Shown: one piece after another, positions 1-51,926 of the stretch | Numbering within the stretch: position 1 is the stretch's first letter | How the letters are laid out: every line of letters begins with the position of its first letter | NCBI GenBank assembly: GCA_002340265.1 | Contig: DDLT01000057.1 | Span: forward strand, 1 to 51,926 | DNA: 51,926 bases | Source: Lentisphaeria bacterium UBA2565 | GTDB lineage: Bacteria > Verrucomicrobiota > Lentisphaeria > UBA2565 | Direction: 5' to 3' | Program-made: the position numbers and the translations under genes | Notes under the pieces: generated by a model | The model's database searches: none | Seen by the model: only the letters and a program-made list of their open reading frames with translations | What the model was told of the DNA's origin: nothing

Positions 1-1023
1 GCGGTGACTACAATCGCTAAAGCAGGGGATCATATTATCGCATCATCTTCTCTTTATGGTGGAACTGAAACTCTTTTCCGTCACACGCTTCCTAAATTCG
101 GTATCGAGGTGACATTCCTTGAAGATATTACTGCTGACAAAATTGCAGCAGAAGTGAAAGATAACACACGTCTGGTTTATCTTGAAACTATTGGTAACCC
201 ACGTGGTGATGTGGCAGACCTTAAAGTAATAACTGATGCGGCACACGCTCAGGGACTTCCAGTTCTTATCGATAACACATTCGCTCCGCAGATTTGTAAG
301 CCGATTGAACACGGTGTTGACGTGGTGATTTACTCTTGTACTAAATGGCTTGGTGGACACGGCACATCTGTTGGTGGTGTGATCATCGACAGCGGTAACT
401 TTAACTGGGGACAAGGTCGTCACCCTGAGTTTACCACACCTGATGCAAGTTATCACGATCTTGTATACTGGGATGCACTTGGAAACGTGCCTGGAATGGG
501 TAATGTCGCGTTTATTCTAAAAGCGCGTGTTGAAGGTCTTCGTAATATCGGAATGAGTCAAAGCCCATTTAACTCATTCCAGATTATTCAAGGTATTGAA
601 ACTTTACCACTTCGTGTGAAAAAGCATGGTGAAAATGCGCTTGAGCTAGCAAACTGGCTGAAAGCACAGCCGGAAGTGGCATGGGTTTCATTTACTGGAC
701 TTGAAGAGCATCCAAGTCATGAAACTGCGAAGAAATATCTAAAAGGTAGCTTCGGTTCAGTTCTAGGCTTCGGAGTAAAAGGCGGCGCGGAAGCTGCTGA
801 AAAATTCATCAACAACGTGAAACTTGCGTTCCATTTGGCGAATGTGGGTGATGCGAGAACATTGGTGATTCACCCAGCTTCAACAACGCATCAGCAGCTG
901 TCTGCGGAAGCTCAGGAAGCATGTGGAATAAAACCTGACTTTGTACGTGTTTCGGTTGGTATCGAAGAAATTGCAGATATCAAAGCCGACTTTAAACAGG
1001 CGCTTGAGGCATCTCAGAAGTAA
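1..1023 (+). CDS. metY: O-acetylhomoserine sulfhydrylase/aminocarboxypropyltransferase (PLP-dependent Cys/Met-metabolism family), 5'-truncated by the window edge
   Basis: Frame 1 is open from nt 1. Shows the C-terminal part of a MetY/Met17-type enzyme: PLP-lysine motif SCTKWLGGHG, HPASTTHQQL, and VRVSVGIE near the end. TAA stop is followed by hairpins. Confidence 0.85.
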   Translation, partial: AVTTIAKAGDHIIASSSLYGGTETLFRHTLPKFGIEVTFLEDITADKIAAEVKDNTRLVYLETIGNPRGDVADLKVITDAAHAQGLPVLIDNTFAPQICKPIEHGVDVVIYSCTKWLGGHGTSVGGVIIDSGNFNWGQGRHPEFTTPDASYHDLVYWDALGNVPGMGNVAFILKARVEGLRNIGMSQSPFNSFQIIQGIETLPLRVKKHGENALELANWLKAQPEVAWVSFTGLEEHPSHETAKKYLKGSFGSVLGFGVKGGAEAAEKFINNVKLAFHLANVGDARTLVIHPASTTHQQLSAEAQEACGIKPDFVRVSVGIEEIADIKADFKQALEASQK

Positions 1024-1092
1024 GTACAATTAAAGCCATCTCATAGCGATGGCTTCACTATCCACCTTTTAACAGTGGATTTACTAAAATTC

Positions 1093-1135
1093 AAAGCCGT
1101 TCAGAAAGTGATTTACTTTTTGGACGGCTTTTTTG
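1093..1135 (+). terminator. Intrinsic terminator downstream of metY
   Basis: AAAGCCGTTC (1093-1102) pairs with GGACGGCTTT (1122-1131) with one G-U pair, followed by a T-run. A second short hairpin lies at 1033-1055. Confidence 0.6.
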
Positions 1136-1252
1136 TGTTTGGTGATTGTATAATCGACTTTTCTCTCTATGATTTTATCAGCAAATAAATTGTAGTTATT
1201 GGTGATGAATCGCTGATATTCAGAAATGATAATTAATAAGTTTGGGGAATTT

Positions 1253-3451
1253 ATGAGTTTTAAACATCTATCTGTGATGGCCTTTTTGGGGTTGGCAATC
1301 TGTTCATTTGGAGAATATGAACAGTCTGAAATAAAGTTAACACCGTTTTATGAAAAACAGGGCGGAGTTGGAACGGCATTTGTTAGAGCGGCAAAACAGA
1401 CCGCGATTATAAATAGTCTGCCGAAAGTAAAACGTGTTGAGCGTAAAGCCTGTGTGTTTAAGAGTTATGCAGAACAGTATATTGAATGCCAACGGGTCGG
1501 AAAACTTTTCATGAATCGTGATTTCAAGGCGTTGAATGAGGCTTTGGAGCGTTATAATGGAATGTTGGATGTGGGTGGTTGTTCGTATATCTATGAGTTG
1601 AACTGTTTCATTCAAGGCCGTTTTGGAGGTTTTGAGATTGCGAAGGAGTGGAACTCCGGCAAGTTTAACTCCGGTTTTTCAGAGGCTATTTTGGCGGATT
1701 ATTACATCACCCGAGCTTGGTTTTCACGAACAGATTCTTCGGGGAAGTATGTAACGGATAAGGGTTGGGAGCTGTTTCGTAAATATATCGCTAAGGCACA
1801 TGAACATGCTATGCAGTCATTTAAGAAGAACCCATCACTGTCCCTTGGTGTTTCACCTCTTCTTCGGTGTGTTGGTTCATCTGGAGGAAGCGATAACAGT
1901 GCGTTGTACCTTTGGGCAAATCTGGCTCTGGAAATTGAACCGTGGAATATAGATATAATTCGTTCGACCTATCATTTTTTACAGCCTAAATGGGGCGGCA
2001 GTTTTGAAGCATTAAAGCAAATTGATAGTGAAATTTCTAGTGTTGATCAAAGTTTTGTACCTACTGCGTTAATGAAATTCAAGTTATTCCGTGCTGTGAG
2101 GGTAATTTATGACTGTTCAGGTGCGTCAAGAGAACAGTGGCAGGCAGTCAATCGTGACTGTTTTGAAAGTACAGAGAAAGCTATTCGAGAGAGGCTTATT
2201 ACAAAATTTCCAGATCGGGTCGTTTACATGGAAACGCTTTTGAAGGCTGCGATTTATTTTGGTTATTGGGAGGATTTTGACCGAATCTTCGATGAAGCTG
2301 TTAAAATCTTTCCAAATGAATACATACTTTATTTTCAGAAAAATGAAAAACTGAAGAAAGCTCAGAGTAAAGATTACGAGGCTCGTTTGAAAAACTTAAA
2401 GAAAGCGGAGTCACTTTTCTCAAATGACGGCCTGATTCATTACGAGTTGGCATTAATTGGTAAAGAAAAGCCGGAATTGGTGTCGAAAGCTGAACGTGAT
2501 AACTATCTGAAGCGTGCCGAAGAACTTTTAAATAACTCTGAAAATGTACAGAAGACAAAGCTGTTGAGGTTTGAGCTTTTGGTTCAAGATAAAAAATATG
2601 CTGAAGCTGATGCTTATATAAAATCAATTCCTCCTCATTCTATCACTAAGCAGGACTTTTCAGAAAAAATTGCACTGTTTTATGCTGATGAATCGTATGG
2701 TTTTTTCGATATGGAAAAAGCTTGGCAGTTTTACATGCTTAACTGGACGTTGCGTTATAGGGAAAATTTGGATAAGAATGTACTTGCTCAAAGCAGTGCT
2801 GGCGGCTCGAACGTTTGCAAGGAGTGGGTTCGCATGGGAGATAAGTTTTATGATAAATATACGGATGATTATCGGGGTGCTTATACGCTTTTAAAGATGC
2901 ATTATGGAAAAGCGGAAGCTTATGTAAATGAAAAAACACCTGAGTCGGTGAAATCGGATTTTTTTTATGAAAAAGGGAAGGTTCACTTTTTTACAAACAG
3001 TAATGCGGAGGCTTTTAAGGCATTTGAGAAATCAGTGAGCCTTGAAGAGACATTTAATAACATTTCCTTTTACGCTCGAGCGGCACAGCGGCTAAAGAAA
3101 AATGATGTGATGAATGAATATTTTGAAAAATGTTGGCAGCTTTGTAAGGATGATGAGCATTTGAATTCATATCGATCTTATGTGGCACGAGCTTATGCGA
3201 ATGTACTTCTCAAGCAAAAGAAGTATAACAAGGTGTTACAGATTACGGAAAAGGTTTTGAATTCGAAGTATTTGGATAATTTTGATAACACAGACTGTCT
3301 TTGCTTAAAAGCGGCGGTTTCTTTGCATCGTGAGGAATATGGAAATACCGAAACCCTTTTAACTCAGGCAAATGAAATCTGCGAATATAAATACTTACGT
3401 AAAAAAATTAAAAGATTGCAGGCTAAGCTTAAGAAAGCCCAAAAAAAATAG
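1253..3451 (+). CDS. Secreted helical-repeat (TPR/Sel1-like) protein of unknown function
   Basis: Long ORF. ATG at 1253 is preceded by GGGGA. N-terminal hydrophobic signal-like segment MSFKHLSVMAFLGLAICSFG. Lys/Glu/Tyr-rich helical-repeat composition. No family recognised. Confidence 0.6.
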   Translation: MSFKHLSVMAFLGLAICSFGEYEQSEIKLTPFYEKQGGVGTAFVRAAKQTAIINSLPKVKRVERKACVFKSYAEQYIECQRVGKLFMNRDFKALNEALERYNGMLDVGGCSYIYELNCFIQGRFGGFEIAKEWNSGKFNSGFSEAILADYYITRAWFSRTDSSGKYVTDKGWELFRKYIAKAHEHAMQSFKKNPSLSLGVSPLLRCVGSSGGSDNSALYLWANLALEIEPWNIDIIRSTYHFLQPKWGGSFEALKQIDSEISSVDQSFVPTALMKFKLFRAVRVIYDCSGASREQWQAVNRDCFESTEKAIRERLITKFPDRVVYMETLLKAAIYFGYWEDFDRIFDEAVKIFPNEYILYFQKNEKLKKAQSKDYEARLKNLKKAESLFSNDGLIHYELALIGKEKPELVSKAERDNYLKRAEELLNNSENVQKTKLLRFELLVQDKKYAEADAYIKSIPPHSITKQDFSEKIALFYADESYGFFDMEKAWQFYMLNWTLRYRENLDKNVLAQSSAGGSNVCKEWVRMGDKFYDKYTDDYRGAYTLLKMHYGKAEAYVNEKTPESVKSDFFYEKGKVHFFTNSNAEAFKAFEKSVSLEETFNNISFYARAAQRLKKNDVMNEYFEKCWQLCKDDEHLNSYRSYVARAYANVLLKQKKYNKVLQITEKVLNSKYLDNFDNTDCLCLKAAVSLHREEYGNTETLLTQANEICEYKYLRKKIKRLQAKLKKAQKK

Positions 3452-3504
3452 TTGGCAATCTATATCTGATTTTTGATATTAAGATAACGGAGAATTTGTG
3501 GGTT

Positions 3505-6051
3505 ATGAAAAACGTTTTGTTAAAGGTTGTTGTTCTTTACATTGTTATGATGCTTTTCGGTTGTGCGTCCAGTAAACGTATGATGCGTATTTCGCCGCTT
3601 TCTGAAGAAATTAATGATAAACTGTCGTCTACAACCCGAACTAACGCCTGGCCGGTCTACTATCATGATAATGGTGTTAGTTCGTTATTTTGGCCATTTA
3701 TTGATTGGGATAAAAATGGTTTTGCATTTCGACCTATTTACAACCAGGAAGGAAATGATAAGTCAATTCTGTGGCCGTTGAGTGGATGGAATTCAGAAAA
3801 AGGCGATGGCTGGGCTCTTAGCGCATATTGGCATAATGACTATCATGGGCTATTTCCGATTTACCATTATACACCTGAAGAATTGAGCTATTACCTTCTC
3901 TATTGGAGAAATGGTCGTGATGCTCAGGGACTTTTACCGCTTTACGGGTATAGCAAAGATTATTGTCACTTCCTTAATGTGTATTGGGGACGCGGTAATT
4001 AAAGTGAGGTTTACGGGCTGTTTCCATTTTACTTTCATTCACAAAAATCATCAATGATTCCGTTGATTTATAACCGTACAAGTTCTGCTGATAAATATGA
4101 TTATCTATATTTATTAGGATTAGGAGCTCGCTTTTGCAAAGACAAAAATGGTGAAATGTCTTACGTTGTCCCTTTCTGGTACAACCAGCAGTATGGAAAC
4201 GGTACAGGACTTACAGCGATTACACCTTTTTATTGGAACTGGAAGAGTGCTGAAAATAGCAATTCATCGCTTCTTTTTCCGCTTTATTATCAGAGTTCAA
4301 CTCCTAAAACAAGCCGGATTCATTCCCTTCTAGGTCATAATATTGTAAAAGAGAATGAAGAATCATTTGCCGTCTATCCGCTTTTTTTCAAAGGGAAAAG
4401 CCCGGATATTTCGTATAACTTTCTTGTTCCGCTCTATTATAAGCAGGTTGTTGATGGCGAGTCGTTGTTTGTGACTCCGCTAGGTGGTTATAGTCATGAC
4501 CCGACAGGAAAACATAAATTTACTAATTTCCTCGGACCTGTCTATATAAACCGTAGGGATTCAGATTATTACTTTAATTCGGTGTTTTGGCCGTTTTATG
4601 TGTCGCATGGCGACCAATCATATTCCAGTAGATGGCTTTTTCTGTTTTTTAGAGCTAAACAAGACAATGAGAGTGAACTGTTAAATGTGATGCTGTTGGC
4701 TTACCATTCTGAATCAAATAAGAACGGTGAGTTCTGGAAACATGTTTGTTGGCCTTTTTATATAGATAATGGCGATGCAGACAAAAGAAATACATATTAT
4801 ACACCGTTTTATATGCGACACCGTACCGACGATTTGGATAGGCACCTTTTAATGTTCGGATTGGGGAAATATGAGAAGTGTAATAGAGGTGCTGGTTACC
4901 GAATTTGGCCGTTTGCCTCAGGTTATGACTATAAAACTAAATTCAACCTTTTTGACTACACTATTTACGGAATGCGCCAACGCGGTAAAAAAACAACAAA
5001 CTGGCTTTTTCCATTTTATTACGGATGGAACCGTGAAAACCAGACAGATCGACAGTTCCTGTTATCGATTGCCCGCTCTTACAGCAACGGAGAAAATTAT
5101 AGACGGAGTCTGTGGCCGTTTTTTTTAGTAAGTACGGCTTTTGAGAAGAAAAACTTTTGGGACGACTTAGGACTATTTTTGTTTGAAAACCATAATTATG
5201 AAAATCAAAAACGGTCCGGTTGGTCAACGTTTGGTGTGCTTGGATTTTCGCATGAAAAAAGTGTGCACAAGAATGCTGAACAGTCGTCGTCAAATAACCA
5301 TTTTCTACTGTTCGGGTCTAAGAAAAGTAACAATTATAATTTAAATCAAATTCCCGAGCCACTGACTTATTCATACCAGAGAACCATCAAAAGTAATGAA
5401 TTCAACTATTTGCTTTACTCTGATAGTGAAAATCACTTTAGAGTTTGGGAAAAAGACGCGTTGACGGATGATGAAATGAAAACTATCAGTCATTGGGTTT
5501 ATAAAACCGGACAAAAGTATGGTTCGATGAAAATTAAGAGCTCAGGTATTTCGTTTGACGAAAACTCCGGTACTAACTTTTCATACTATACAAAAGAGAC
5601 CAGTGAAGAGTTAACAGAGAAGGTTAAAGCAATTCTTACTAAATATGAAGTAGACTATGCGTCGGATGAAAAAGCTAAGCTGAGAACTGCCGTCGAAAAA
5701 CTGGCGGAGAAGAAAAGTAACATCACCGTTGAGAGTAATAACGCATTCTGGCCGTTTTATGACTATTCATCAAGTGAAGGAAACCATAAATTTGAGTTCT
5801 TGTTTGGTGTGGCGAGTTCCAAGCGGGTAGGGGACAAGTCAAGAACTACAGTTTTAAAGTATCTCTATCGAAGAGAGCAGGAAGGTGAGAATGTACGTCG
5901 CGATATTTTCCCATTTATAAGTGTAGATAGTGGAGAAAATGGTGGTCATTCATTTTTAGGAAAGTTGTGGAATTTCAGGAAAGGGAAGGAGGGACGTTAT
6001 GGTCACTTCCTTTTTATTCCATGGGGAAAGCATCCAGAAGAAAAAAAATAG
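3505..6051 (+). pseudogene. Aromatic-Pro (WPFY/FPLYY) repeat lipoprotein interrupted by an in-frame TAA at 4000-4002. Could instead be two CDS, 3505..4002 and 4054..6051.
   Basis: Track ORFs 3496..4002 and 4054..6051 share one frame and are separated by a single stop. The repeat continues through it (GRGN*SEVYGLFPFYFHS). A signal peptide plus lipobox (LFGC) exists only on the first part. Confidence 0.6.
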
Positions 6052-41693: not shown

Positions 41694-41972
41694 ATGAAAT
41701 ACCTATTTTTTATACCATTTATTACACTTTTTATTCTGCTGTCGTTTTCGGCTTTGTCGGAGTACAATCGCTATTGCGGTGCCGTATCCGAATACAAAGA
41801 AGTCGATTGTGAACTTGCGGAACTTGATAGCGAGTGTAATAAAATCAAACAGCTGATTCGCGACTTGAAGGAAAATCCACGTGCGGTTGAACGCGTGGCC
41901 CGCGAAGACTTCGGCTGGTGCCGTGAAGGCGAGAAGATTTATAATTTCTCTTCTCCATCTCAGTGGCAATAA
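41694..41972 (+). CDS. ftsB: Septum formation initiator (FtsB/DivIC family)
   Basis: N-terminal TM, coiled coil, and C-terminal NPRAVERVAREDFGWCREGEKIY, typical of FtsB. Confidence 0.7.
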   Translation: MKYLFFIPFITLFILLSFSALSEYNRYCGAVSEYKEVDCELAELDSECNKIKQLIRDLKENPRAVERVAREDFGWCREGEKIYNFSSPSQWQ

Positions 41973-42037
41973 TTCCTCCTATACTACCGAGCGTGGTAGC
42001 TTCCTCCCTTTTTTACAGTTTAACAGGATATGATATT

Positions 42038-43876
42038 GTGGCAGATAACAAGGCGCACGCATATACAGATGATAAAATCCAGACGCTGAGTGCGTTGGAG
42101 CACATTAAACTTCGTCCCGGAATGTATATCGGGCGAATGGGTAATGGCTCCCATCCGGATGATGGTATTTACGTTCTTTTAAAAGAGATTATTGATAATA
42201 GTATTGATGAGTTTGTGATGGGCTACGGACGCAAGGTCGAAATTGCCATCACTGATGACCGTGAAGTACGAATTCGTGACTTCGGACGCGGAATTCCCCA
42301 GGGAAAACTTGTGGATTGTGTATCGATTATCAATACTGGTGCGAAATATAACAGCGATGTATTCCAGTTTTCCGTTGGTCTTAACGGTGTGGGTACAAAG
42401 GCGGTTAATGCATTGTCCGACTCTTTTATCGCAATTTCTTATCGTGAAGGAAAATATAAAAAGGTGACATTTGCCGATGGTGAACTTCTCTCGGAAGAGG
42501 AGGGCGCGACTGATCAGGAAAATGGAACTGAAATTATCTTTATTCCAGCCGAACAGCATTTCCCTAAATTTAAGTATGACCTTAAGTTTGTCCGCCGCAA
42601 ACTGTGGAACTACGCCTATTTGAACAGTGGTTTGAGTCTTATTTTTGAAGGCGAAAAGTTCTTCTCTAGAAATGGACTTCTTGATCTGATTAACGAAAAG
42701 GTCGGAGGTGAATCACAGTACGATGCGATTTACTTTAAGGATCAGACGCTCGAATTTTCTCTCACGCACACCTCAAACTTCGGGGAAAGTTACTACTCTT
42801 TTGTAAATGGTCAGTATACTAATGACGGTGGAACGCACCAGTCGGCTTTCCGTGAAGGGGTTTTGAAAGGTATCAACGAATATGCCGGGAAAAACTATAA
42901 CGGTGACGATGTACGTAATGGCTGTTTTGGTGCGGTTGCGGTAAAATTGAAAGAACCGATTTTTGAATCTCAAACTAAGAACAAGCTTGGAAATACGGAG
43001 ATTCGTTCTGAAATTGTTCAGAAGGTAAAACAGGTCATTGTTGAATATCTTTATAAAAACACGGATATTGCAGAAGTTCTGATTGCGAAAGTGGTTCAGA
43101 ATGAGAAAATTCGTAAAGAGATTCAGGATATTAAGAAGAAAGCGAAGGGAACTGCCAAGAAAGCGGCAATTAAGATTCCGAAGCTTCGCGATTGTAAATA
43201 TCACCGTACAGATTCGGCAGAAAAGAAGAAACGTGCGGCTCGTAAAGGTAAGAAGACCGGCGACGATTCTATGATTTTTATTACAGAGGGACAGTCGGCT
43301 TCCGGTTCTATGGTAAGTTGTCGAAACCCATTGAATCAGGCAATTTTCTCTCTGAAGGGTAAACCGCTGAATAGTTGGGGTAAGAAACGCGACCTGATTT
43401 ATAAGAATGAAGAGTTGTATTACATCACACAGGCATTGAATATTGAAGATAGCATGGATGATCTTCGTTATGAAAAAGTGGTTATTGCAACCGATGCCGA
43501 TGTTGACGGTCTTCATATTCGAAACCTTCTAATCACCTTCTTTTTACACTATTTTGAACAGCTGATTCTTTCTGAACATGTCTTTATTCTCGAAACGCCG
43601 CTTTTCAGGGTTCGAAACAAGAAAGAGACAATTTACTGTTACGATGAAGATGAGAAAGAAGAGGCTATTGCCAAACTTGGTAAAACACATGAAATTACCC
43701 GATTTAAGGGACTTGGTGAGATTTCTCCGAAAGAGTTTGGTCAATTTATCGGCGAAGATATTCGTATTGCACCTGTGACAGTTGAGAACATTGCGGAAAT
43801 TCCTGGACTTCTCGATTTCTACATGGGACAGAATACGCCTGACAGAAAAAAATATATAATGAACAACCTGATTTAA
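42038..43876 (+). CDS. parE: Type IIA topoisomerase subunit B (topoisomerase IV ParE-like)
   Basis: LEHIKLRPGMYIG, EIIDNSIDE, Toprim EGQSASGS and IATDADVDGLHI. Shorter than gyrB. Start is uncertain: GTG 42038 preferred over GTG 41963, which overlaps ftsB. Confidence 0.85.
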   Translation: MADNKAHAYTDDKIQTLSALEHIKLRPGMYIGRMGNGSHPDDGIYVLLKEIIDNSIDEFVMGYGRKVEIAITDDREVRIRDFGRGIPQGKLVDCVSIINTGAKYNSDVFQFSVGLNGVGTKAVNALSDSFIAISYREGKYKKVTFADGELLSEEEGATDQENGTEIIFIPAEQHFPKFKYDLKFVRRKLWNYAYLNSGLSLIFEGEKFFSRNGLLDLINEKVGGESQYDAIYFKDQTLEFSLTHTSNFGESYYSFVNGQYTNDGGTHQSAFREGVLKGINEYAGKNYNGDDVRNGCFGAVAVKLKEPIFESQTKNKLGNTEIRSEIVQKVKQVIVEYLYKNTDIAEVLIAKVVQNEKIRKEIQDIKKKAKGTAKKAAIKIPKLRDCKYHRTDSAEKKKRAARKGKKTGDDSMIFITEGQSASGSMVSCRNPLNQAIFSLKGKPLNSWGKKRDLIYKNEELYYITQALNIEDSMDDLRYEKVVIATDADVDGLHIRNLLITFFLHYFEQLILSEHVFILETPLFRVRNKKETIYCYDEDEKEEAIAKLGKTHEITRFKGLGEISPKEFGQFIGEDIRIAPVTVENIAEIPGLLDFYMGQNTPDRKKYIMNNLI

Positions 43877-43879
43877 AAT

Positions 43880-46336
43880 ATGAGTGACGAAGTTAACAAT
43901 GGTGAAGAGGTAGTGGAGTTGGCTGCTCACGAGAGCGGCCGTTCTGATATTCATGAGATGATGGATCGTCATTTTCTTGAATATGCGTCTTATGTGATTA
44001 AAGATAGGGCGATTCCGGATATTAATGACGGTTTAAAACCTGTACAGCGCCGAATACTTCATTCGTTGAATAAGATGGATGACGGTAAATTTCACAAGGT
44101 GGCGAATGTCATTGGTCATACGATGCAGTATCATCCGCATGGTGATGCGTCGATTGGTTCTGCTCTGGTAAACCTTGCCAATAAAGAGTTTTTCATCGAG
44201 AAACAGGGAAACTTCGGTAACATCATGACAGGAGACGTGGCATCGGCTCCGCGTTATATCGAATGTCGTCTGACACCGCTTGCCAGAGAGGTTCTGTTTA
44301 ACAAAGAGCTTACCGATTTTGTCGAATCCTACGACGGTCGTAACCTTGAACCGATTACACTTCCTTGTAAACTTCCGGCGCTTCTTATGCAGGGTGCAGA
44401 AGGTATTGCGGTTGGTATGGCAACCAAAATTATGCCGCACAACTTCAACGAACTTTTAAATGCTCAGATTGCGATTATTCGTGGCGAGGCTTTTGAACTT
44501 TACCCTGACTTCCTTCAGGGCGGAATTATGGATGTATCCGATTACCAAGATGGCAACGGGAAACTGAAAGTTCGTGCAAAAATCGAAAAATCCAAAGAGT
44601 CGACCAAAGCACTTCTTATTAAAGAAATTCCTCCTACAACTACTACAGAATCTGTGATTCACTCTATCGAAGAGGCGACGCGAAAGAACAAGATTAAAGT
44701 CTCTTCTATTCATGATTATACGGCTGAAAATGTCGAGATTGAGGTGATTCTTCAGCGTGGTGTAAATGTGGATAAAGCAATCATGGCGCTTTACGCCTAC
44801 ACCGATTGTGAAGTGTCGATTTCACCGAACTTGATGTTGATTAAGGACAACCGACCTGTCAAAATGTCGGTGACAGAAGTGCTTAAGTACAACACGGAAA
44901 TGTTGGTTGCGGTTCTGAAAAAAGAGCTGGAGATTGAGCTTGGTAAATTGGAAGATCAGTTCCATGCCAAAACTCTTGAACAGATCTTTATTGAACATCG
45001 AATCTACAAACGCATTGAAGAGTGCGAGAACTATGAAGATGTAATTTCCGCAGTTGATGAAGGTTTGAAACCGTTTGCGCATCTATTGAAACGTGAAGTG
45101 ATAACTGCTGATATTGAACGACTTTTAGAGATTCGTATTAAGCGTATTTCCCGCTTTGATATTAACAAGAACCGAAAAGATATCGAAGAAATTATCGCGA
45201 AGATTGATGAAGTTGTCGGTCACCTCTGTAATCTGAAGAAATACACAATCAACTTCATTAAATCGATTCTGAAAAAATACGGTGAGAAATATCCGCGTCG
45301 TACTTCAATGGAACGCTTTAAACAGATTGATGTGAAAAAAGTGGCGCTTCGTAATGTGAAAGTCGGCTATGATCGTAGTAGCGGAATGCTGGGAACAGCA
45401 GTGAAAAGTGAAGAAACTCTTGCATGTACCGAGTTTGACCGTTTGGTGCTATTCTCCAAAAAAGATGGAATCTGTAAGATTATTCCGATTCAGGACAAAC
45501 TTTATATCGGTAAAGGTGTCGAAGTCTTCAAAGCCGATAAAAATCAGATCTATAGCATGATTTATCGCGATAAGAAAAGTGATGCAGTTTACGCAAAACG
45601 TTTCCGAGTTTCGAAATATATCATGGAAAAAGAATACAATGCGATTCCGAAAGGTTGTCGAATTGACCGCATTTATATCAATGCAGGTGTGGTTGTACGC
45701 TGCGAATTTGAACCTGCAAAACGTCAGCAGATTACCTCATGTGACATTGTATTTGATGATATCACAATGCGTTCTCTGACAGCTCGTGGTTTTAAAATTA
45801 CCGACAAGAAGGTGAAGAAATATACACTTCTTGAACGTGACAATGAGGCGGCTGTGCATCAGGAAGTGAAGGATGACAAACCGACAAGTTCTGAAACTGA
45901 AGAAGTGGAAGAAACAAAAGCGGTTGTTCCGAAACTTAACCGTGAATTGAATCGCATGTTTGCAGATTCAAAAGAGATGTATAAGAACCGTTCGTTCAAC
46001 GGGGAAGTCGTTCCAGAAGCGGAAGTGGTCGAAGAAGAGATTGTTGAGCCAGTCGAACCAATTGAGAAAGCTGAAACCGCTGAAAAAGCGGAATCAATCG
46101 AATCCGTTGAATCAATCGAAGAAGTTGATGAAAAAGCCGAATTAATTGAGCCTGTTGAGAAGGCTGAGCCTGTCGAATCAATTGAAGACGTTGATGAAAA
46201 AATCGAAGAACCAGAAGCTACAGAAGAACCTGAGAAACCTAAAAAATCTACAGGTTACCGCGAACTGTCGCTTGAAGAACGTGCCAAACGCTTTAAAATT
46301 GATGAAAGCACTCCATTTTCTCTAGAAATGGATTAG
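43880..46336 (+). CDS. parC: Type IIA topoisomerase subunit A (topoisomerase IV ParC-like) with a long acidic repeat tail
   Basis: Active-site SAPRYIECRL and MQYHPHGDASIGSAL. No GyrA-box. C-terminal Glu/Pro/Val/Ile repeat tail. Confidence 0.85.
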   Translation: MSDEVNNGEEVVELAAHESGRSDIHEMMDRHFLEYASYVIKDRAIPDINDGLKPVQRRILHSLNKMDDGKFHKVANVIGHTMQYHPHGDASIGSALVNLANKEFFIEKQGNFGNIMTGDVASAPRYIECRLTPLAREVLFNKELTDFVESYDGRNLEPITLPCKLPALLMQGAEGIAVGMATKIMPHNFNELLNAQIAIIRGEAFELYPDFLQGGIMDVSDYQDGNGKLKVRAKIEKSKESTKALLIKEIPPTTTTESVIHSIEEATRKNKIKVSSIHDYTAENVEIEVILQRGVNVDKAIMALYAYTDCEVSISPNLMLIKDNRPVKMSVTEVLKYNTEMLVAVLKKELEIELGKLEDQFHAKTLEQIFIEHRIYKRIEECENYEDVISAVDEGLKPFAHLLKREVITADIERLLEIRIKRISRFDINKNRKDIEEIIAKIDEVVGHLCNLKKYTINFIKSILKKYGEKYPRRTSMERFKQIDVKKVALRNVKVGYDRSSGMLGTAVKSEETLACTEFDRLVLFSKKDGICKIIPIQDKLYIGKGVEVFKADKNQIYSMIYRDKKSDAVYAKRFRVSKYIMEKEYNAIPKGCRIDRIYINAGVVVRCEFEPAKRQQITSCDIVFDDITMRSLTARGFKITDKKVKKYTLLERDNEAAVHQEVKDDKPTSSETEEVEETKAVVPKLNRELNRMFADSKEMYKNRSFNGEVVPEAEVVEEEIVEPVEPIEKAETAEKAESIESVESIEEVDEKAELIEPVEKAEPVESIEDVDEKIEEPEATEEPEKPKKSTGYRELSLEERAKRFKIDESTPFSLEMD

Positions 46337-46371: not shown

Positions 46372-46962
46372 ATGAAATGTGATCTTTGCCACATCAACGA
46401 AGCAAGTATTACCATAAAAGGCGACGTGCCGGGCATCGGTTTTAAAGAACTGAACATCTGTACCAGTTGCGCCGCCAAACAGGGCTTTGATGCCCTCGAG
46501 AATATCGTCAAAGGCGTCGGCCTTACCAAACTTTTCGAATCCATGTCCGCCAATCCTGGAGAGAAACTCGCTTTGGACTTTGCCGAAGATGAGGCTGAAG
46601 TTTACGAAGATGGACTGCAGACAGTTTGCGATAGCTGTGGGCACACTCTCAATGATCTAAAGAAATCAGGTAAATTCGGTTGCGTCGATTGTTATGACTC
46701 TTTTTCCGAAATCATCATGCAGGTTCTTGCCAATATGCACAAGGGCGTGATTCATATTCCGCGTGATAATCAGCGCGGCGCAATCAATGTCGAAGTGGCA
46801 AGCGTCGTCGAATTGACTCTGGAAATTTCCCGCAAGCAGAAAGACCTTCAAACTGCTATTAAAAGCGAACATTTTGAAAAAGCCGCACAGCTTCGTGATG
46901 AAATCAGCGAGCTACAGAAAAAACTTGATGACTGCATCAGCAATAATGAGGACGAAAAATGA
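46372..46962 (+). CDS. mcsA: McsA-like protein-arginine-kinase activator (zinc fingers plus UVR motif)
   Basis: N-terminal CDLC...CTSC and CDSC...CVDC pairs. C-terminal UVR-like LQTAIKSEHFEKAAQLRDEISELQKKL. Overlaps mcsB (ATGA). Confidence 0.75.
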   Translation: MKCDLCHINEASITIKGDVPGIGFKELNICTSCAAKQGFDALENIVKGVGLTKLFESMSANPGEKLALDFAEDEAEVYEDGLQTVCDSCGHTLNDLKKSGKFGCVDCYDSFSEIIMQVLANMHKGVIHIPRDNQRGAINVEVASVVELTLEISRKQKDLQTAIKSEHFEKAAQLRDEISELQKKLDDCISNNEDEK

Positions 46963-48035
46963 GTTCGTTTGTTGATGAATTAATCAAAAAAAATATTCCG
47001 TGGCTAAGTTCCGAATCCCAGAGTTCGCCGATTGCCATAAGTTCGCGAATCCGTTTTGCCCGAAATGTCACGGGTTATAATTTCCCGCCAAAACTGAATG
47101 ATGAAAACCGCAATGCGATTTACGAAATTGTCACGCATGCGGTCGAATCATGCCCAATTTTCAAAAACGCCCACCATTGCCAGATTAATGAACTGGAAGA
47201 ATTTGCCCGTGAAGTGCTTTTGGAACGTCATCTTATTAGTGCCGAGCACATGGTAAGTTCGGAAGCGGGCAGGGGAATCGTGGTGAGCGAAGACGAAAAC
47301 TTCAGCATTATGGTCAACGAAGATGATCATGTGCGACTTCAGGGGTTGCGTTCGGGACTTCAACTTCGCGAAATTCATGCCGATCTTCTGCAAATTGATG
47401 AAGCAATGGATAAAAAACTTCACTATGCGTATCGTGATGATATCGGTTATCTTTCTTCCTCTCCTATGAATGTGGGAACCGGAATGCGCGTGTCGGTGAT
47501 GTTGCATCTTCCCGGATTGGTTTACTCCAAACAGATTGATCAGGTGATTAATGCGTTGTCGAAAATGGGAATTATTGTCCGTGGAATTTTCGGTGAGGGA
47601 AGTACGGCGTTAGGTAACCTTTTCCAAATCTCAAACAATTCGACACTTGGCGAAAGCGAAGCGCAAATCGTTGATCGTCTGACAAAAGTGGTAAATCAAG
47701 TCATAATTCATGAAGAGAATGCAAGGCAAACTCTTTTAACTGTAAACGAAACTTTTACCTACGATTTAATCGGTCGCGCTTATGGCGTATTGAAACATGC
47801 CTACCTCTTAGATACAAGAGAGGCGTTGTCAAAACTGTCTGCATTGCGTTTAGGTGTTGATTTAGGAATCTTCGCATTTTTGACCACTGCAAAGGTGAAC
47901 GAACTCTTTGTCGCCACACAGCCGGGGCATCTTCAGATGTACGCTCAAAAAGCGTTGTCACCCGAAGACTGTGAAATCTTCCGAGCAAATCTAGTCCGAA
48001 ACAAACTCTCAGGAATGGGACTAGAACTGGACTAA
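46959..48035 (+). CDS. mcsB: Protein arginine kinase (ATP:guanido phosphotransferase)
   Basis: NEDDHVRLQ and SPMNVGTGMRVSVMLHLPGL motifs of the phosphagen-kinase fold. About 358 aa. Confidence 0.85.
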   Translation: MSSFVDELIKKNIPWLSSESQSSPIAISSRIRFARNVTGYNFPPKLNDENRNAIYEIVTHAVESCPIFKNAHHCQINELEEFAREVLLERHLISAEHMVSSEAGRGIVVSEDENFSIMVNEDDHVRLQGLRSGLQLREIHADLLQIDEAMDKKLHYAYRDDIGYLSSSPMNVGTGMRVSVMLHLPGLVYSKQIDQVINALSKMGIIVRGIFGEGSTALGNLFQISNNSTLGESEAQIVDRLTKVVNQVIIHEENARQTLLTVNETFTYDLIGRAYGVLKHAYLLDTREALSKLSALRLGVDLGIFAFLTTAKVNELFVATQPGHLQMYAQKALSPEDCEIFRANLVRNKLSGMGLELD

Positions 48036-48090
48036 TTTAGTTAGCAGTTAGTAGTAAACAGTTAGCAGTAAATTTAAACTTTAAATTTAA
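48036..48090. repeat. Heptad tract (TTTAGTT AGCAGTT AGTAGTA AACAGTT AGCAGTA AATTTAA ACTTTAA)
   Basis: AGT at 48039, 48046, 48053, 48060 and 48067, followed by A/T heptads. Confidence 0.7.
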
Positions 48091-48106
48091 TTATAGAGGG
48101 TGAATA

Positions 48107-48427
48107 ATGATTGGTGAGATTTTTAAACTATTTATTTTGATTTTTAATTTTGTGTTATTTCCAATATCCGTAATTTTAATCTTCAAGATTTTTGGTTACA
48201 CACAAAGATCCGAACAGGAAATAAAAGAGTTAAGTTCTGAAATTGATAAGTTGCGTAAAAGCATTGGCCTATTGGTTGCCGAGGCTGAATTCCCGGAAGA
48301 GTTTAAAGATAGAATGAAAAAGGTCTTAAAAAATATTGGTGAGGATTCTGCTTTTGCACTTATAAAAGAAGAGTTTTCTCTGGAAGATAGTCAAGTGAGA
48401 CTGGTTTTTGAAAAGATACTTGCCTGA
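48107..48427 (+). CDS. Small membrane-anchored hypothetical protein
   Basis: N-terminal TM (IFKLFILIFNFVLFPISVILIFKIF) followed by a charged helix. RBS GAGGG upstream. Confidence 0.5.
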   Translation: MIGEIFKLFILIFNFVLFPISVILIFKIFGYTQRSEQEIKELSSEIDKLRKSIGLLVAEAEFPEEFKDRMKKVLKNIGEDSAFALIKEEFSLEDSQVRLVFEKILA

Positions 48428-48480
48428 ACTGGAGAATTTGCTTTACTGCTCTTTAAAAGAAAGAGAGCAATAAAGCAATA

Positions 48481-48530
48481 AATAGCTAGTCAATCAAGCT
48501 AACAAACTAACTAACCAACTAAAACAACAT
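48481..48530. repeat. G-poor CTAAC/AACTA word tract (weakly periodic)
   Basis: caatcaagctaacaaactaactaaccaactaaaacaac. Opposite-sense vocabulary to 48036-48090, on the other side of the small gene. Confidence 0.45.
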
Positions 48531-48680
48531 TACTTCAGTTTGTCGATGTGTAAGAAATCCGACACTTCTCGGCGCTTCATCATCGGTTTTAATAGGTATA
48601 TGTATTGCGGTAAATCTTGTGGCGTATAGAAACTTTTATGGCTTTGTAAACTAATCTAAAAAATGATTGAATAATTTTAT

Positions 48681-51600
48681 ATGAAGCGAATTGTATTTAT
48701 TGATACGGAAGTCGATTTTCAGGGTAAGGGGATTAATGACTTTGGAGCTGTTTCTTATGATGGTTTGCAGTTTCATAATAAATCCGCTGGTGAATTTGGA
48801 ACTTTTGTCAAAGATTTTGAATTTGTTTGCGGTCACAACGTTATTAATCATGATCTAAAGTTTATTAATCAGTTTACGAATTGTGACCTGAGTAATTTGA
48901 AGGCTATTGATACCCTGTTTTTGTCGCCGCTTTTATTTCCGATGTTGCCCTATCACAAACTTGTTAAAGATGACAAGCTACAATCTGAAGAGTTGAATAA
49001 TCCTTTGAATGATGCAATTAAGGCTCGTGATCTCTTTTATGATGAGGTTACTGCTTTTAAAGAACTTCCTGTGAAGTTGCAACAGATTTATTTGAGACTT
49101 TTGAACAGAGAAAGGTGTTTTGAGAACTTCTTTAAATTTATAGGTTTGAATTCTACTGATGAAAGTTTGGAGAGTGTTATTCATGAACAATTTAGAAAAA
49201 GCATTTGTCAAAAGGTTAACCTCAGCAGGTTAATTGATGAATCTCCAGTTGAATTAGCCTACTGCCTAGCTTTGATAAACTGTAATAGTCGTTATTCGGT
49301 GACTCCTCCCTGGGTGATAAAAAACTATCCTGATGTGGAGCGTGTTTTTTATTTATTGAGGAACAATCCCTGTTTATCTGGTTGTAGTTACTGTAATCAG
49401 GCTTTGGATGCGAAGGTTGGGTTGAAGAAGTTTTTTGGCTTTGATTCATATCGTAGTTATGGTGGTGAGGCACTACAGGAAAAGGCGGTAAATGCTGCAA
49501 TTGGCAATAAATCATTGGTTGCCGTTTTTCCTACTGGTGGTGGCAAATCAATCACTTTTCAGGTTCCTGCTTTGATGAGCGGGATAAATGTGAAAGGTTT
49601 AACTGTTGTTATCTCGCCTCTTCAGTCACTGATGAAAGATCAGGTTGATAACCTTGAGAGTTCTAACATAACTGATGCGGTAACGATTAATGGCTTGCTA
49701 GATCCCATCGCAAGGCAGAAATCTTTTGAAAGGGTACAGAATGGTTCTGCTACGCTTTTGTATATCTCTCCGGAATCTTTACGCTCGAAATCTATTGAAC
49801 ATCTTCTTCTTGGTCGTAATGTGGTTCGTTTTGTTATTGACGAAGCACACTGCTTTTCATCATGGGGACAGGACTTTCGTGTGGATTACCTTTACATTGG
49901 CGATTTTATAAAATCTTTGCAAGAAAAAAAGTGTCTTGATCGCCCAATTCCAGTTTCATGTTTTACAGCAACAGCCAAGCAGAATGTTATTGAGGATATT
50001 AAAAATTATTTTAAAACGAAACTTAACCTACAACTTGAGACATTTAGTGCTAAGGCGTCGCGTACGAATCTCACTTATAAGGTAATTCCTCAAGAGAGTG
50101 AGGAAGGTAAATACAATAAATTGCGACATTTAATTGATGGTAAGAAATGTCCAACAATTGTTTATGTGTCTAGAACAAAACGAGCATGGGAGATTGCTGA
50201 CAGACTTTCTAGTGATGGTTATGCCGCTAAACCGTATCACGGAAAAATGGAGAAGCAGGAGAAATCGGATAATCAAGATGCGTTTATTCGTGGAGATGTT
50301 GACATTATGGTGGCGACTTCTGCTTTTGGTATGGGGGTGGATAAGAAAGATGTGGGAATGGTTATCCATTATGAACTTTCCGATTCTCTAGAAAACTATG
50401 TGCAGGAGGCCGGACGAGCTGGTCGAGATGAAAATATTACTGCTGATTGTTATGCCCTGTTTAATGAGGAAGATTTGGATAAACACTTTATTCTTCTTAA
50501 TCAGACTAAACTTCATATTAAGGAGATTCAGCAGGTTTGGCGAGCAATTAAGAGTATTACTAAGTTTAGGTCGAAAGTCTCTAATTCAGCATTGGAGATT
50601 GCTAGAGAAGCTGGTTGGGATGGCAGTGTTGTGGAAATTGAAACACGGGTCACTACCGCCATTTCGGCATTGGAGGAGGCTGGCTATTTAAAGCGTGGTC
50701 AAAATATGCCTCGTATTTTTGCTAATAGTATTTTGACTAAGAATGCAATGGAGGCAATCGAGAAGATAAATAGTTCTGAGCGCTTTAATCAATCACAGAA
50801 AGTGAATGCTACTCGTATTATCAAAAAACTGTTTTCGACCAAAAGCAGAAAACAGGCCACTGATGAGGTTGCCGAGTCGAGAGTAGATTATATCTCTGAT
50901 CATCTTGGGATTGTGAAAGAAGATGTAATCAGTGCAATCAACTTGATGCGGGAAGAGCAGATTTTAGCGGATACAAAAGATTTGACGGCATTTATTAAAC
51001 GTGGGGAACAGAAGAATCGGTCTCTAAATATCGTCAAATCTGTTAGTAAATTAGAACGGTTTTTGCTTAGTAAGTTTGATGAACAGGAGAAGACATTTCA
51101 TATCAAAGAACTTAATGAGTCAGCAGAAGAGTTTGGTTGCAAAGGTGTGACTCCCAAAAGATTAATTACTGTAATTAACTTTTGGGTAATAAAGCAGTTG
51201 ATTAAGCGGAAAACTCATAAGTCTAAGAATCATTTTACGATTTTGGCGAACTACTCTCGAGATGAATTGAAGGTTAAGCTCGAAGCACGTTATACACTTT
51301 CTATTTTTATTGTTAACTATCTTTTTGAAAAAAGTAGTGAAGGTTTAACCAGAAAAGAGTTGAAAGCTGATATGGTTCTTGTTGAGTTTTCTGTACATGA
51401 ATTGAAGGATGAATTTGAGAGACAGAACACTTTGTTGAATTTAAAAACTACAATTGCTGAAATTGAGGATGCACTGTTCTACCTTTCCCGAATTGGGTCG
51501 ATTAAGATTGAGGGTGGCTTTCTTGTTGTATATAACAAGTTGACTATAGAACGATTAGAGAAAGACAGTAGAATTAACTATAAAAATGATGACTATAAGA

Positions 51601-51926
51601 CCTTGAAACGCTTTTATGAAAACAGAATGCAGCAGATTCATATTGTTGGTGAATATGCTAAAAAAATGATTAGCGACTATAAAGAGGCACTGCAGTTTGT
51701 CGAGGACTATTTTCAGTTGAATTACAGCTCGTTCTTGAATAAATATTTTAAAGGGAGCCGAATGAGTGAGATTAAACGGAATGTAACTCCGGCAAAATTT
51801 CGTCAACTGTTTGGCGAACTGTCACCTTCTCAGTTATCGATAATTAACGATCGGTCTCAGTATATTGCAGTAGCAGCGGGGCCAGGTAGCGGTAAAACAA
51901 GAGTATTAGTTCATAAATTGGCATCG
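48681..51926 (+). CDS. Giant helicase, 3'-truncated by the window edge: DnaQ-like exonuclease-like N-terminus, RecQ-family core, linker, then the start of a UvrD/PcrA-type helicase domain
   Basis: Frame 3 is open from ATG 48681 (in-frame stop at 48672) to the window end, and is absent from the ORF track. Motifs: IDTEVD and GHNVINHDLKF; FPTGGGKS (about 49527); DEAH (49839-49850); TATA; VATSAFGMGVDKKDV; QEAGRAGRDE; AAGPGSGKT (51873-51899). Confidence 0.85.
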   Translation, partial: MKRIVFIDTEVDFQGKGINDFGAVSYDGLQFHNKSAGEFGTFVKDFEFVCGHNVINHDLKFINQFTNCDLSNLKAIDTLFLSPLLFPMLPYHKLVKDDKLQSEELNNPLNDAIKARDLFYDEVTAFKELPVKLQQIYLRLLNRERCFENFFKFIGLNSTDESLESVIHEQFRKSICQKVNLSRLIDESPVELAYCLALINCNSRYSVTPPWVIKNYPDVERVFYLLRNNPCLSGCSYCNQALDAKVGLKKFFGFDSYRSYGGEALQEKAVNAAIGNKSLVAVFPTGGGKSITFQVPALMSGINVKGLTVVISPLQSLMKDQVDNLESSNITDAVTINGLLDPIARQKSFERVQNGSATLLYISPESLRSKSIEHLLLGRNVVRFVIDEAHCFSSWGQDFRVDYLYIGDFIKSLQEKKCLDRPIPVSCFTATAKQNVIEDIKNYFKTKLNLQLETFSAKASRTNLTYKVIPQESEEGKYNKLRHLIDGKKCPTIVYVSRTKRAWEIADRLSSDGYAAKPYHGKMEKQEKSDNQDAFIRGDVDIMVATSAFGMGVDKKDVGMVIHYELSDSLENYVQEAGRAGRDENITADCYALFNEEDLDKHFILLNQTKLHIKEIQQVWRAIKSITKFRSKVSNSALEIAREAGWDGSVVEIETRVTTAISALEEAGYLKRGQNMPRIFANSILTKNAMEAIEKINSSERFNQSQKVNATRIIKKLFSTKSRKQATDEVAESRVDYISDHLGIVKEDVISAINLMREEQILADTKDLTAFIKRGEQKNRSLNIVKSVSKLERFLLSKFDEQEKTFHIKELNESAEEFGCKGVTPKRLITVINFWVIKQLIKRKTHKSKNHFTILANYSRDELKVKLEARYTLSIFIVNYLFEKSSEGLTRKELKADMVLVEFSVHELKDEFERQNTLLNLKTTIAEIEDALFYLSRIGSIKIEGGFLVVYNKLTIERLEKDSRINYKNDDYKTLKRFYENRMQQIHIVGEYAKKMISDYKEALQFVEDYFQLNYSSFLNKYFKGSRMSEIKRNVTPAKFRQLFGELSPSQLSIINDRSQYIAVAAGPGSGKTRVLVHKLAS

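Follow-up and report, generated by a model that had tools for sequence, protein, structure and literature searches.

WRN joins a DEDD exonuclease to a RecQ motor, and Staphylococcus aureus DinG follows the same plan: an N-terminal DEDD-fold 3'–5' exonuclease, then a helicase motor, in one chain. DEDD exonucleases degrade 3' ends. RecQ-family helicases and helicases of the UvrD/PcrA/Rep family both translocate 3'–5' on single-stranded DNA; UvrD loads at nicks, and mismatch repair pairs it with a nicking endonuclease and 3' exonucleases. Here, we describe a gene that brings such elements together in a single polypeptide. It begins at position 48681 of a 51,926-nucleotide (nt) stretch of forward-strand DNA from Lentisphaeria bacterium UBA2565 (GenBank assembly GCA_002340265.1, contig DDLT01000057.1), referred to throughout as the 'window', and runs off its end. 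The product, which we term the 'fusion protein', carries an exonuclease-like head, a RecQ-family motor of helicase superfamily 2 (SF2) and a UvrD-type motor of superfamily 1 (SF1). The building blocks, and the theme of helicase–nuclease fusion in conflict systems, are already known; this fusion is real and unusual. It has parallels in Nhi, Hna, Hachiman, type II Gabija and RecBCD/AddAB: these, too, link a nuclease to a single motor or to a pair, and are presumed to respond to aberrant DNA ends or to intermediates of replication; the genes of the first four stand alone or beside a nuclease partner, in defence islands (see also PMC13069673). It differs from the pairing of RecB with RecD in that its motors belong to different superfamilies and are both predicted to move 3'–5'.

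The gene was first noticed in a reading of the sequence alone (the 'original prediction'), which described more than 1080 codons open in frame 3 to the last base, attributed their absence from a list of open reading frames (ORFs) to the window end, and proposed that a single polypeptide carries the nuclease-like head and both motors. Translation of frame 3 yields 1082 codons without a stop from the ATG at 48681 to 51926, with an in-frame TAA at 48672-48674 just 5' of that ATG, and running off the window proves to be the sole reason for the omission. The ATG is the right start, since M1 aligns with M1 in 32 full-length homologues; such homologues are 1597-1620 amino acids (aa) long. The closest, P0001, is encoded at positions 157-4950 of a 5-kb contig (L001) that shares 97% nucleotide identity with the window over 3262 nt (window 48667-51926). 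P0001 is 98% identical to the window protein, is 1597 aa long and includes a complete SF1 helicase, and so the window holds part of a single gene rather than a recQ followed by a uvrD. A stop that splits the frame, which the original prediction had said would count against it, is absent between 48681 and 51926. As had been proposed, the fusion protein is a single polypeptide whose two motors come from different superfamilies. Its parts within the window are as follows.

48681-51926, + strand: aa 1-1082, the 5' two-thirds of a gene about 1597 codons long, cut by the window end (open frame; homologues of 1597-1620 aa)
48681-49070, + strand: DEDD/DnaQ-like 3'–5' exonuclease-fold domain, aa 1-130 (AlphaFold model, Foldseek, conservation)
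49071-49415, + strand: helical domain that joins the exonuclease fold to the RecQ core, aa 131-245 (model secondary structure, conservation)
49416-50531, + strand: RecQ-family SF2 helicase core, aa 246-617 (Pfam, TIGR00614, PDB match, motifs)
50574-51554, + strand: array of four winged-helix-like units, about aa 632-958 (AlphaFold model, Foldseek)
51585-51821, + strand: helical connector into the SF1 helicase, aa 969-1047 (model secondary structure, conservation)
51822-51926, + strand: first 35 residues of a UvrD/PcrA/Rep-type SF1A helicase (PF00580 at aa 1048-1081)

Beyond the window lie about aa 1083-1597, which include a C-terminal domain of some 125 aa without a Pfam or other family match; in P0001, the sequence ends ...LPELKFSRK at residue 1597. 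This architecture (DEDD exonuclease-like head, helical domain, RecQ SF2 motor, four winged-helix units, helical connector, compact UvrD/PcrA SF1A motor and small C-terminal domain) is fixed: complete family proteins are nearly all 1585-1745 aa long and always carry the linker, the segment between the motors, at about residues 600-1050, shorter matches having the look of fragments. No model in PADLOC, Pfam or NCBIfam spans more than one domain of the protein. Could it be an artefact, produced by misassembly or by a frameshift that merges separate recQ and uvrD genes? The Nostoc punctiforme plasmid NC_010632 is annotated with a RecQ gene and a separate UvrD-domain protein, and P0272, from Aliarcobacter cibarius, is a 1177-aa, UvrD-only form; both are what this explanation would expect. 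Against it, the same protein of about 1600 aa recurs in hundreds of independent assemblies from several phyla with the linker at a constant position, and the coding sequence of linker and connector is highly conserved. We consider an artefact extremely improbable, and effectively refuted. The two-gene annotation in NC_010632, and P0272 with its missing N-terminal part, may themselves reflect a natural split of the fusion or its decay into pseudogenes.

The N-terminal head is recognizable by fold rather than by sequence. Residues 1-245 match nothing in Pfam, NCBIfam or a PDB profile search, the DEDD family models RNase_T and DNA_pol_A_exo1 included, and a homologue search with the same residues returned only fragments of the same family, and no other architecture at that sensitivity. 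The AlphaFold (AF2) model of residues 1-250 has a predicted confidence (pLDDT) of 88, and all of its meaningful Foldseek matches are DEDD/RNase-H-like 3'–5' exonuclease domains. In the PDB, these are S. aureus DinG (the top match), family B and family A polymerases (PolB/PolA), phi29 polymerase, EXD2 and RNase AS, with E-values of 2e-3 to 0.1; among viral models, they are PolA exonuclease domains, YprB-like and DnaQ-like proteins, with E-values down to 1e-5. The original prediction had read this region as DnaQ-like, with Exo I and Exo II motifs, and the model is consistent with that: it suggests an RNase-H-like fold bearing four conserved acidic residues, in which Exo I corresponds to D8/E10, Exo II to H52-N53...D58 and an Exo III-like motif to N106-x4-D111. 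None of the residues D8, E10, H52, N53, D58, H92, N106, P108 and D111 varies among 52 sequences from Bacteroidota and Campylobacterota, two sets whose linkers share only 25-30% identity with that of the window protein. Invariance across two phyla so divergent places the acidic tetrad D8/E10/D58/D111 under selection. The base of Exo III, His in DEDDh enzymes and Tyr in DEDDy enzymes, four or five residues before the last Asp, is another matter. The original prediction could see no clear histidine there, and rightly so: the position holds the invariant Asn, N106, and this makes exonuclease catalysis uncertain. The invariant H92, which falls in a low-confidence loop of the model, might serve as a stand-in base. 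We regard exonuclease activity of the head as likely.

In the helical domain that follows, a Cys cluster (C176, C231, C235 and C238; the motif NNPCLxGCxYC plus C176, at about nt 49206-49394) is invariant in the Bacteroidota clade only; Campylobacterota members lack it or have other residues in its place. The cluster may form a zinc site specific to the lineage, located before, not after, the RecQ core.

The first motor belongs to the RecQ family. Pfam places DEAD at aa 265-436 and Helicase_C at aa 477-582, and the NCBIfam family model recQ_fam (TIGR00614) scores 274.8 bits, versus a cut-off of 219.8, over aa 248-612. The SF2 motifs I, II, III and VI and the aromatic-rich loop of RecQ enzymes are all present and nearly invariant across the family: Walker A PTGGGKS at aa 284, DEAH at aa 387, the aromatic-rich loop SWGQDFR at aa 394, TATA at aa 429 and QEAGRAGRD at aa 575. 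The core is complete and its DEAH box lies at 49839-49850, both as originally read. In the PDB, the best match is Escherichia coli RecQ (1oyw, E = 1.8e-53, with only chain residues 12-344 aligned), followed by BLM, RECQ5 and WRN (1e-36 to 1e-38 for the last). The housekeeping RecQ equivalog models are a different matter: TIGR01389 scores 306 bits versus a cut-off of 640, and PRK11057, 233 versus 1015. The TIGR01389 match covers model positions 5-351 of 591, leaving the C-terminal 240 positions unmatched. That part of the housekeeping RecQ model represents the zinc-binding/winged-helix and HRDC domains. The protein thus shares with housekeeping RecQ all of the helicase motifs and the aromatic-rich loop, while differing in that it aligns by the core only, fails the equivalog and is about three times as long; that this was no housekeeping RecQ had been anticipated.

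Between the motors, the original prediction saw about 480 aa of helical linker. This needs revision, in that most of the segment consists of four tandem winged-helix units, followed by a helical connector. The AF2 model of aa 600-1047 (pLDDT 77) repeats a strand/helix/helix/hairpin pattern in four units before the connector, and the top Foldseek matches, though weak in E-value, are mutually consistent: RPC62, with its four extended winged-helix domains, the winged-helix domains of ORC, and BlaI, PadR and MarR. It is the agreement of the modelled repeats with these matches that identifies the array. The connector contains a strongly conserved segment, YxxxxxHIVGEYA...FxxDYF.

The second motor is represented in the window by 35 residues only, and this truncation is why PF00580 scores there just below its cut-off (21.7 versus 23 bits). 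Its Walker A, AAGPGSGKT, begins at nt 51873, where the original prediction had placed it, and P0001 supplies the full domain. In P0001, aa 1048-1471 match UvrD-helicase (PF00580, 1.1e-32), AAA_19 (2.2e-23) and UvrD_C (PF13361, 2.2e-19), and contain the SF1A motifs GPGSGKT (1067), DEAQD (1173), GDDDQ (1202), HKAKGKEF (1428) and VAMTRAK (1458). To judge by their sequences, the catalytic motifs of both motors are intact. PcrA, UvrD and Rep are the closest relatives of this half (PDB: PcrA, 4.5e-27; UvrD, 1.2e-23), which also matches GajB of Gabija (PDB, 2e-13; PADLOC, 1e-46), aligned over most of the length of GajB.

How does this assembly compare with named systems? WRN and DinG resemble it most directly in layout: the RecQ core of WRN is homologous to that of the fusion (E about 1e-37), and the exonuclease domain of DinG is the nearest fold to its head in the PDB. 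They differ in that the fusion lacks the RecQ C-terminal region and has instead four winged-helix units and a second, SF1, motor; that it has Asn, not Tyr or His, in Exo III, and a head without detectable sequence similarity to known families; and that it is bacterial and mobile. Like UvrD/PcrA/Rep and GajB, its C-terminal half has all of the SF1A motifs, and it is compact in the manner of GajB; unlike them, it is joined to a RecQ motor and ends in the unmatched domain of about 125 aa. Three memberships can be rejected. The protein does not belong to Gabija, for although its SF1 half matches GajB, no GajA-like (OLD/TOPRIM) partner is found among the most frequent neighbour families at 80 loci (described below). 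The best PADLOC matches, via the RecQ-like core, are to DpdF (6e-94) and to PsyrT of PsyrTA/RqlHI (4e-75). It is not part of a Dpd system, as NCBIfam DpdF scores 219.5 bits versus a cut-off of 550 and there is no dpd cluster among the neighbours, in which Dpd-related matches are only weak and DpdE-like or PDC-S62. Nor is it PsyrT of a PsyrTA system, since no PsyrA-like partner occurs among the neighbours.

The family is accessory, widespread, horizontally mobile and uncharacterised. When the linker was compared with 1.84 billion representative proteins, it matched 706 clusters at 50% identity, 202 of them with E ≤1e-30. Members are present in every order of Bacteroidota, with identities of 62-76%, and bear the RefSeq label 'RecQ family ATP-dependent DNA helicase'; a clade from Campylobacterota shares 36% identity with the window protein over its length, and copies of about 30% identity are found in Gammaproteobacteria, Alphaproteobacteria and cyanobacteria. 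Copies 63-69% identical to the Bacteroidota protein also occur on contigs (L018, L021, L011, L024, L060, L070 and L076) whose labels include Desulfobacter, Methylophilus, Spirochaetia, Bifidobacterium, Alkaliphilus and Desulfobacula; these have either crossed between phyla recently or arisen as contamination during binning. The large ORFs of L023 and L033, considered as second copies, encode alpha-2-macroglobulin and SprA instead.

Mobility is evident from a comparison with topoisomerase IV. Between the window and its closest syntenic relative, metagenome contig L002, ParE is 96% identical, ParC 88%, McsB 87%, McsA 74% and the fusion (aa 1-1082) 80%; over this short distance, the fusion has thus changed somewhat more rapidly than topoisomerase IV. 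Nevertheless, the fusion, though 80% identical in L002, is still 71-76% identical to proteins from other orders and classes of Bacteroidota, whereas ParC outside L002 is at best 57-58% identical, and typically 46%, in a metagenome scan. Compression of this kind is what transfer produces, and we conclude from the mismatch that the gene has moved horizontally. In 80 metagenome loci that contain parC of relatives (ParC identity 44-58%), the fusion, mcsA and mcsB are present in none; a metagenome scan with McsB found no relatives. The GC content is 33-39% across the fusion gene and 40-45% in the genes upstream. Plasmids account for 27 records with at least 80% query coverage, and in IMG/VR, 12 contigs among 2.9 million carry the gene, with neighbours that include large serine recombinases, tyrosine integrases, methyltransferases, restriction enzymes and transposases. 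A phage origin can be set aside: among 50,697 phage genomes there are only partial matches to the RecQ core, and none at full length. The original prediction had named universal conservation as a core gene as an outcome that would undo it; the conservation incongruent with ParC, together with the copies on plasmids and integrated elements, speaks against such a status.

What accompanies the gene elsewhere was assessed by clustering the six genes on either side of the fusion at 80 GTDB loci. No partner gene is universal at these loci; the biggest neighbour cluster comprises 11 of them. The commonest neighbour is an HNH endonuclease gene, directly upstream and on the same strand at 10 of the 80 loci, overlapping the start of the fusion by 4 bp at seven. 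These HNH proteins have three architectures. The commonest is about 320 aa long (e.g. in L031), with an uncharacterised N-terminal domain of about 200 aa that has a conserved APHKPxLLL motif and no Pfam match; a second, of about 257 aa (L040), matches the PADLOC 'HNH' model PDLC04132 at 5.5e-97 as well as a type II restriction HNH model; and the third (L080) is of the PF01844 type. Loci with HNH upstream include L024, L025, L029, L031, L067, L079 and L021, with L040 and L080 in addition; in L031, HNH genes flank the fusion on both sides. At two further loci, both in Bacteroidia metagenome-assembled genomes, a methyltransferase-HIT gene abuts the fusion start instead (L027, 9129-10001; L082, 9137-9997). 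An HNH or methyltransferase-HIT gene thus lies directly upstream at 12 of 80 loci (about 15%), mostly overlapping the start. The methyltransferase-HIT protein is about 290 aa long, its HIT part weakly matches the PADLOC ThsC model, and it appears to be an alternative operonic partner to HNH. Other adjoining genes encode McrB-McrC (L013, L026), a SWIM/PDC-S62 protein together with HipB-HipA (L004, L005), a PLD-ResIII-DUF3427 protein (L075), NOV_C (L027), AbiEii, SoFic and type I restriction–modification (R–M) systems. On plasmids, the gene is found with type I R–M and HNH (Allochromatium), with WYL and type I-D CRISPR (Thiothrix) and with parAB/rep (Aliarcobacter). In L021, a 1604-aa TPR-CHAT protein is encoded 3.4 kb upstream of the fusion; we had considered this ORF as a second copy, and reject it as such.

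Immediate neighbours of the family are enriched in defence and mobile-element genes. At E ≤1e-8, 123 immediate neighbours matched 156 PADLOC families, about five times the 33 matched by 123 random ORFs from parC loci, in a rough comparison that counts families rather than proteins and uses parC loci of metagenomes, rather than the same genomes, as its control. Most of the 33 control families are redundant GajB models on one helicase.

These observations lead us to the reading that we favour, to which we give about an even chance: the fusion protein is a stand-alone, mobile, DNA-targeting helicase–exonuclease directed against invading DNA, whether phage, plasmid or conjugative. We infer the defence role from context. 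The original prediction, which named a defence system as one possibility beside a specialised repair machine, finds support in the neighbours of the family at the 80 loci and not in the window itself, where there is no defence island; the enrichment beside known defence genes that typifies defence systems is likewise seen in the rough PADLOC test and not at this locus. In outline, the protein would load at a nick, gap, end or fork. The two motors, both from families that move 3'–5', would engage both strands or arms; the exonuclease head would trim the freed 3' end; and the winged-helix array might hold duplex DNA or sense a trigger. The upstream HNH nuclease or methyltransferase-HIT protein, where present (the 15% or so of loci above), would probably supply the entry nick or an additional effector. 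This scheme of HNH nick, unwinding and trimming has a parallel in mismatch repair, in which MutH nicks, UvrD unwinds and a 3' exonuclease digests.

More tentatively, and with less confidence than in the general reading, we suggest a specific form of it: an unnamed, single-gene immune system of the type 'nick/end-unwind-degrade'. Here, RecQ and UvrD motors of the same polarity, on a winged-helix tether, would open foreign DNA bidirectionally, starting at an entry site, the DEDD head would destroy the freed 3' strand, and optional, swappable HNH or HIT partners would make the entry lesion. If this is true, SF1 and SF2 motors would be seen for the first time to cooperate in defence within one chain, and the exonuclease–helicase layout of WRN would have a bacterial counterpart.

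The same plasmids and integrated elements allow for another function, one that serves the elements themselves. Plasmids, integrative and conjugative elements or prophages might use the protein to process their own DNA, in establishment, replication or recombination, or to counter host restriction or RecBCD-like degradation, with chromosomal copies such as this one being remnants of integration. In Aliarcobacter pACIB, the gene lies between parAB/rep and the type IV secretion coupling protein; in a Bacteroides finegoldii plasmid, it is near ssb and parA/parG; and the IMG/VR copies are beside serine recombinases and integrases. UvrD-like helicases have also been found in plasmid 'polyvalent proteins' (PMC5512222). 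We nevertheless think this explanation rather improbable. No integrase, transposase or transfer gene is present in the 12 kb upstream of the fusion (Pfam scan) or downstream of it in L002; the 12 IMG/VR loci, and phage matches that fall short of full length, are a thin yield for collections of that size; and HNH, type IV-like or McrBC nucleases as partners are commoner in host defence.

The locus in this genome bears on a third explanation. Upstream of the fusion, the window contains the following.

41963-43876: parE (Pfam scan of upstream genes)
43880-46336: parC
46372-46962: McsA-like UVR-motif protein
46959-48035: McsB-like arginine kinase (ATP:guanido phosphotransferase)
48039-48069: heptad tract, AGTTAGC repeated 4.4 times
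48045-48666, + strand: 622-bp strain-variable segment that includes the 106-aa ORF, hairpin and CTAA tract (blastn break at 48044/48667)
48107-48427: 106-aa ORF with one hydrophobic N-terminal helix (single transmembrane)
48428-48680: intergenic region with hairpin and CTAA tract, the presumed promoter region of the fusion gene
48438-48478: hairpin, after the small ORF
48499-48522: CTAA tract

Heptad tracts and a small membrane-protein gene were said at the outset to separate the fusion from a housekeeping cluster, and all are present. A scan upstream of the fusion for promoters and terminators gave no sigma-70-type or terminator consensus above chance. The listed parE ORF begins with GTG at 41963; L002 ParE aligns from residue 26, and the true start is probably some 25 codons downstream. 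The mcsA-mcsB pair is best known from the ctsR-mcsA-mcsB-clpC operon of Firmicutes; McsA is the least conserved of the proteins compared between the window and L002. The 622-bp segment is missing from the 97%-identical contig L001 (compare L001 116-140), where the fusion ATG comes about 40 nt after the mcsB stop. The indel begins inside the AGTTAGC tract, and may be a small insertion cassette or a repeat-mediated deletion. In L002, the order is parE-parC-mcsA-mcsB-fusion, followed by genes for a nitroreductase, an RRM protein and a Na/H exchanger and by frr and pyrH, all five on the opposite strand. Since L002 continues in this way with housekeeping genes, neither partner genes nor a defence island are expected past the window end, and the suggestion that partners lie there is unlikely to hold for this genome. 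At this locus, the fusion stands alone downstream of mcsA-mcsB, without a partner.

Several of these facts, and some others, weigh against a role in defence. Here and in L002, the neighbours of the fusion are housekeeping genes, and its position about 40 nt behind mcsB in L001 suggests co-transcription with a stress-response operon. At the 80 loci, most neighbours are ordinary metabolic and transport genes (150 Pfam families among 123 proteins), and the PADLOC comparison is a rough one for the reasons given. The polarity and cooperation of the motors are drawn from family knowledge, and the exonuclease assignment from fold matches with weak E-values, in a domain whose Exo III has neither His nor Tyr. 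Literature searches yielded no paper that describes an exonuclease–RecQ–UvrD fusion or a defence phenotype for the family.

The protein could, then, be a specialised enzyme of DNA repair, recombination or replication restart that serves its own genome, in which a WRN-like exonuclease–helicase is combined with a UvrD-type, protein-stripping motor. Its substrates would be stalled or regressed forks, D-loops or transcription–replication conflicts, and its spread would follow from its usefulness and self-containment. The order of exonuclease and RecQ is that of WRN, to which, as to E. coli RecQ (2e-53), the RecQ core is clearly related; the nearest relatives of the SF1 half, PcrA, UvrD and Rep, are helicases of repair and replication; and the locus is a housekeeping one, with parEC and mcsAB upstream, and frr and pyrH beyond in L002. 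Synteny is kept within genera (L041/L059, L015/L019, window/L001/L002), and conservation across a phylum, at 62-76%, is very high. That conservation is, however, incongruent with ParC, and the gene is carried on plasmids and integrated elements, and by none of the 80 parC loci of relatives. The RecQ C-terminal region is absent and the housekeeping RecQ model fails. Upstream HNH partners that mostly overlap the start, and an excess of R–M, abortive-infection and toxin–antitoxin neighbours, would be unexpected for a repair gene. We judge the repair explanation unlikely, if less so than service to a mobile element. The original prediction had allowed that a core repair gene in surroundings without defence genes would defeat it. 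The surroundings are indeed defence-poor, here and in L002, while the gene is neither core nor split, and a stand-alone activity against invading DNA remains the reading that we prefer.

Thousands of database entries labelled 'RecQ family ATP-dependent DNA helicase' mask an architecture of seven parts that is fixed and for which three catalytic activities are predicted. If its function is defence, or the exclusion of plasmids, the fusion would constitute a new single-gene class, abundant in Bacteroidota (including plasmids of gut Bacteroides and Phocaeicola) and in Campylobacterota, and would offer a tractable bacterial model for the cooperation of exonuclease and RecQ, as in WRN, and for the coupling of SF1 and SF2 motors. 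Should it prove to be a repair enzyme, the fusion would be a repair module that is traded horizontally, and likewise unusual. Under either reading, the current annotation understates the fusion protein.

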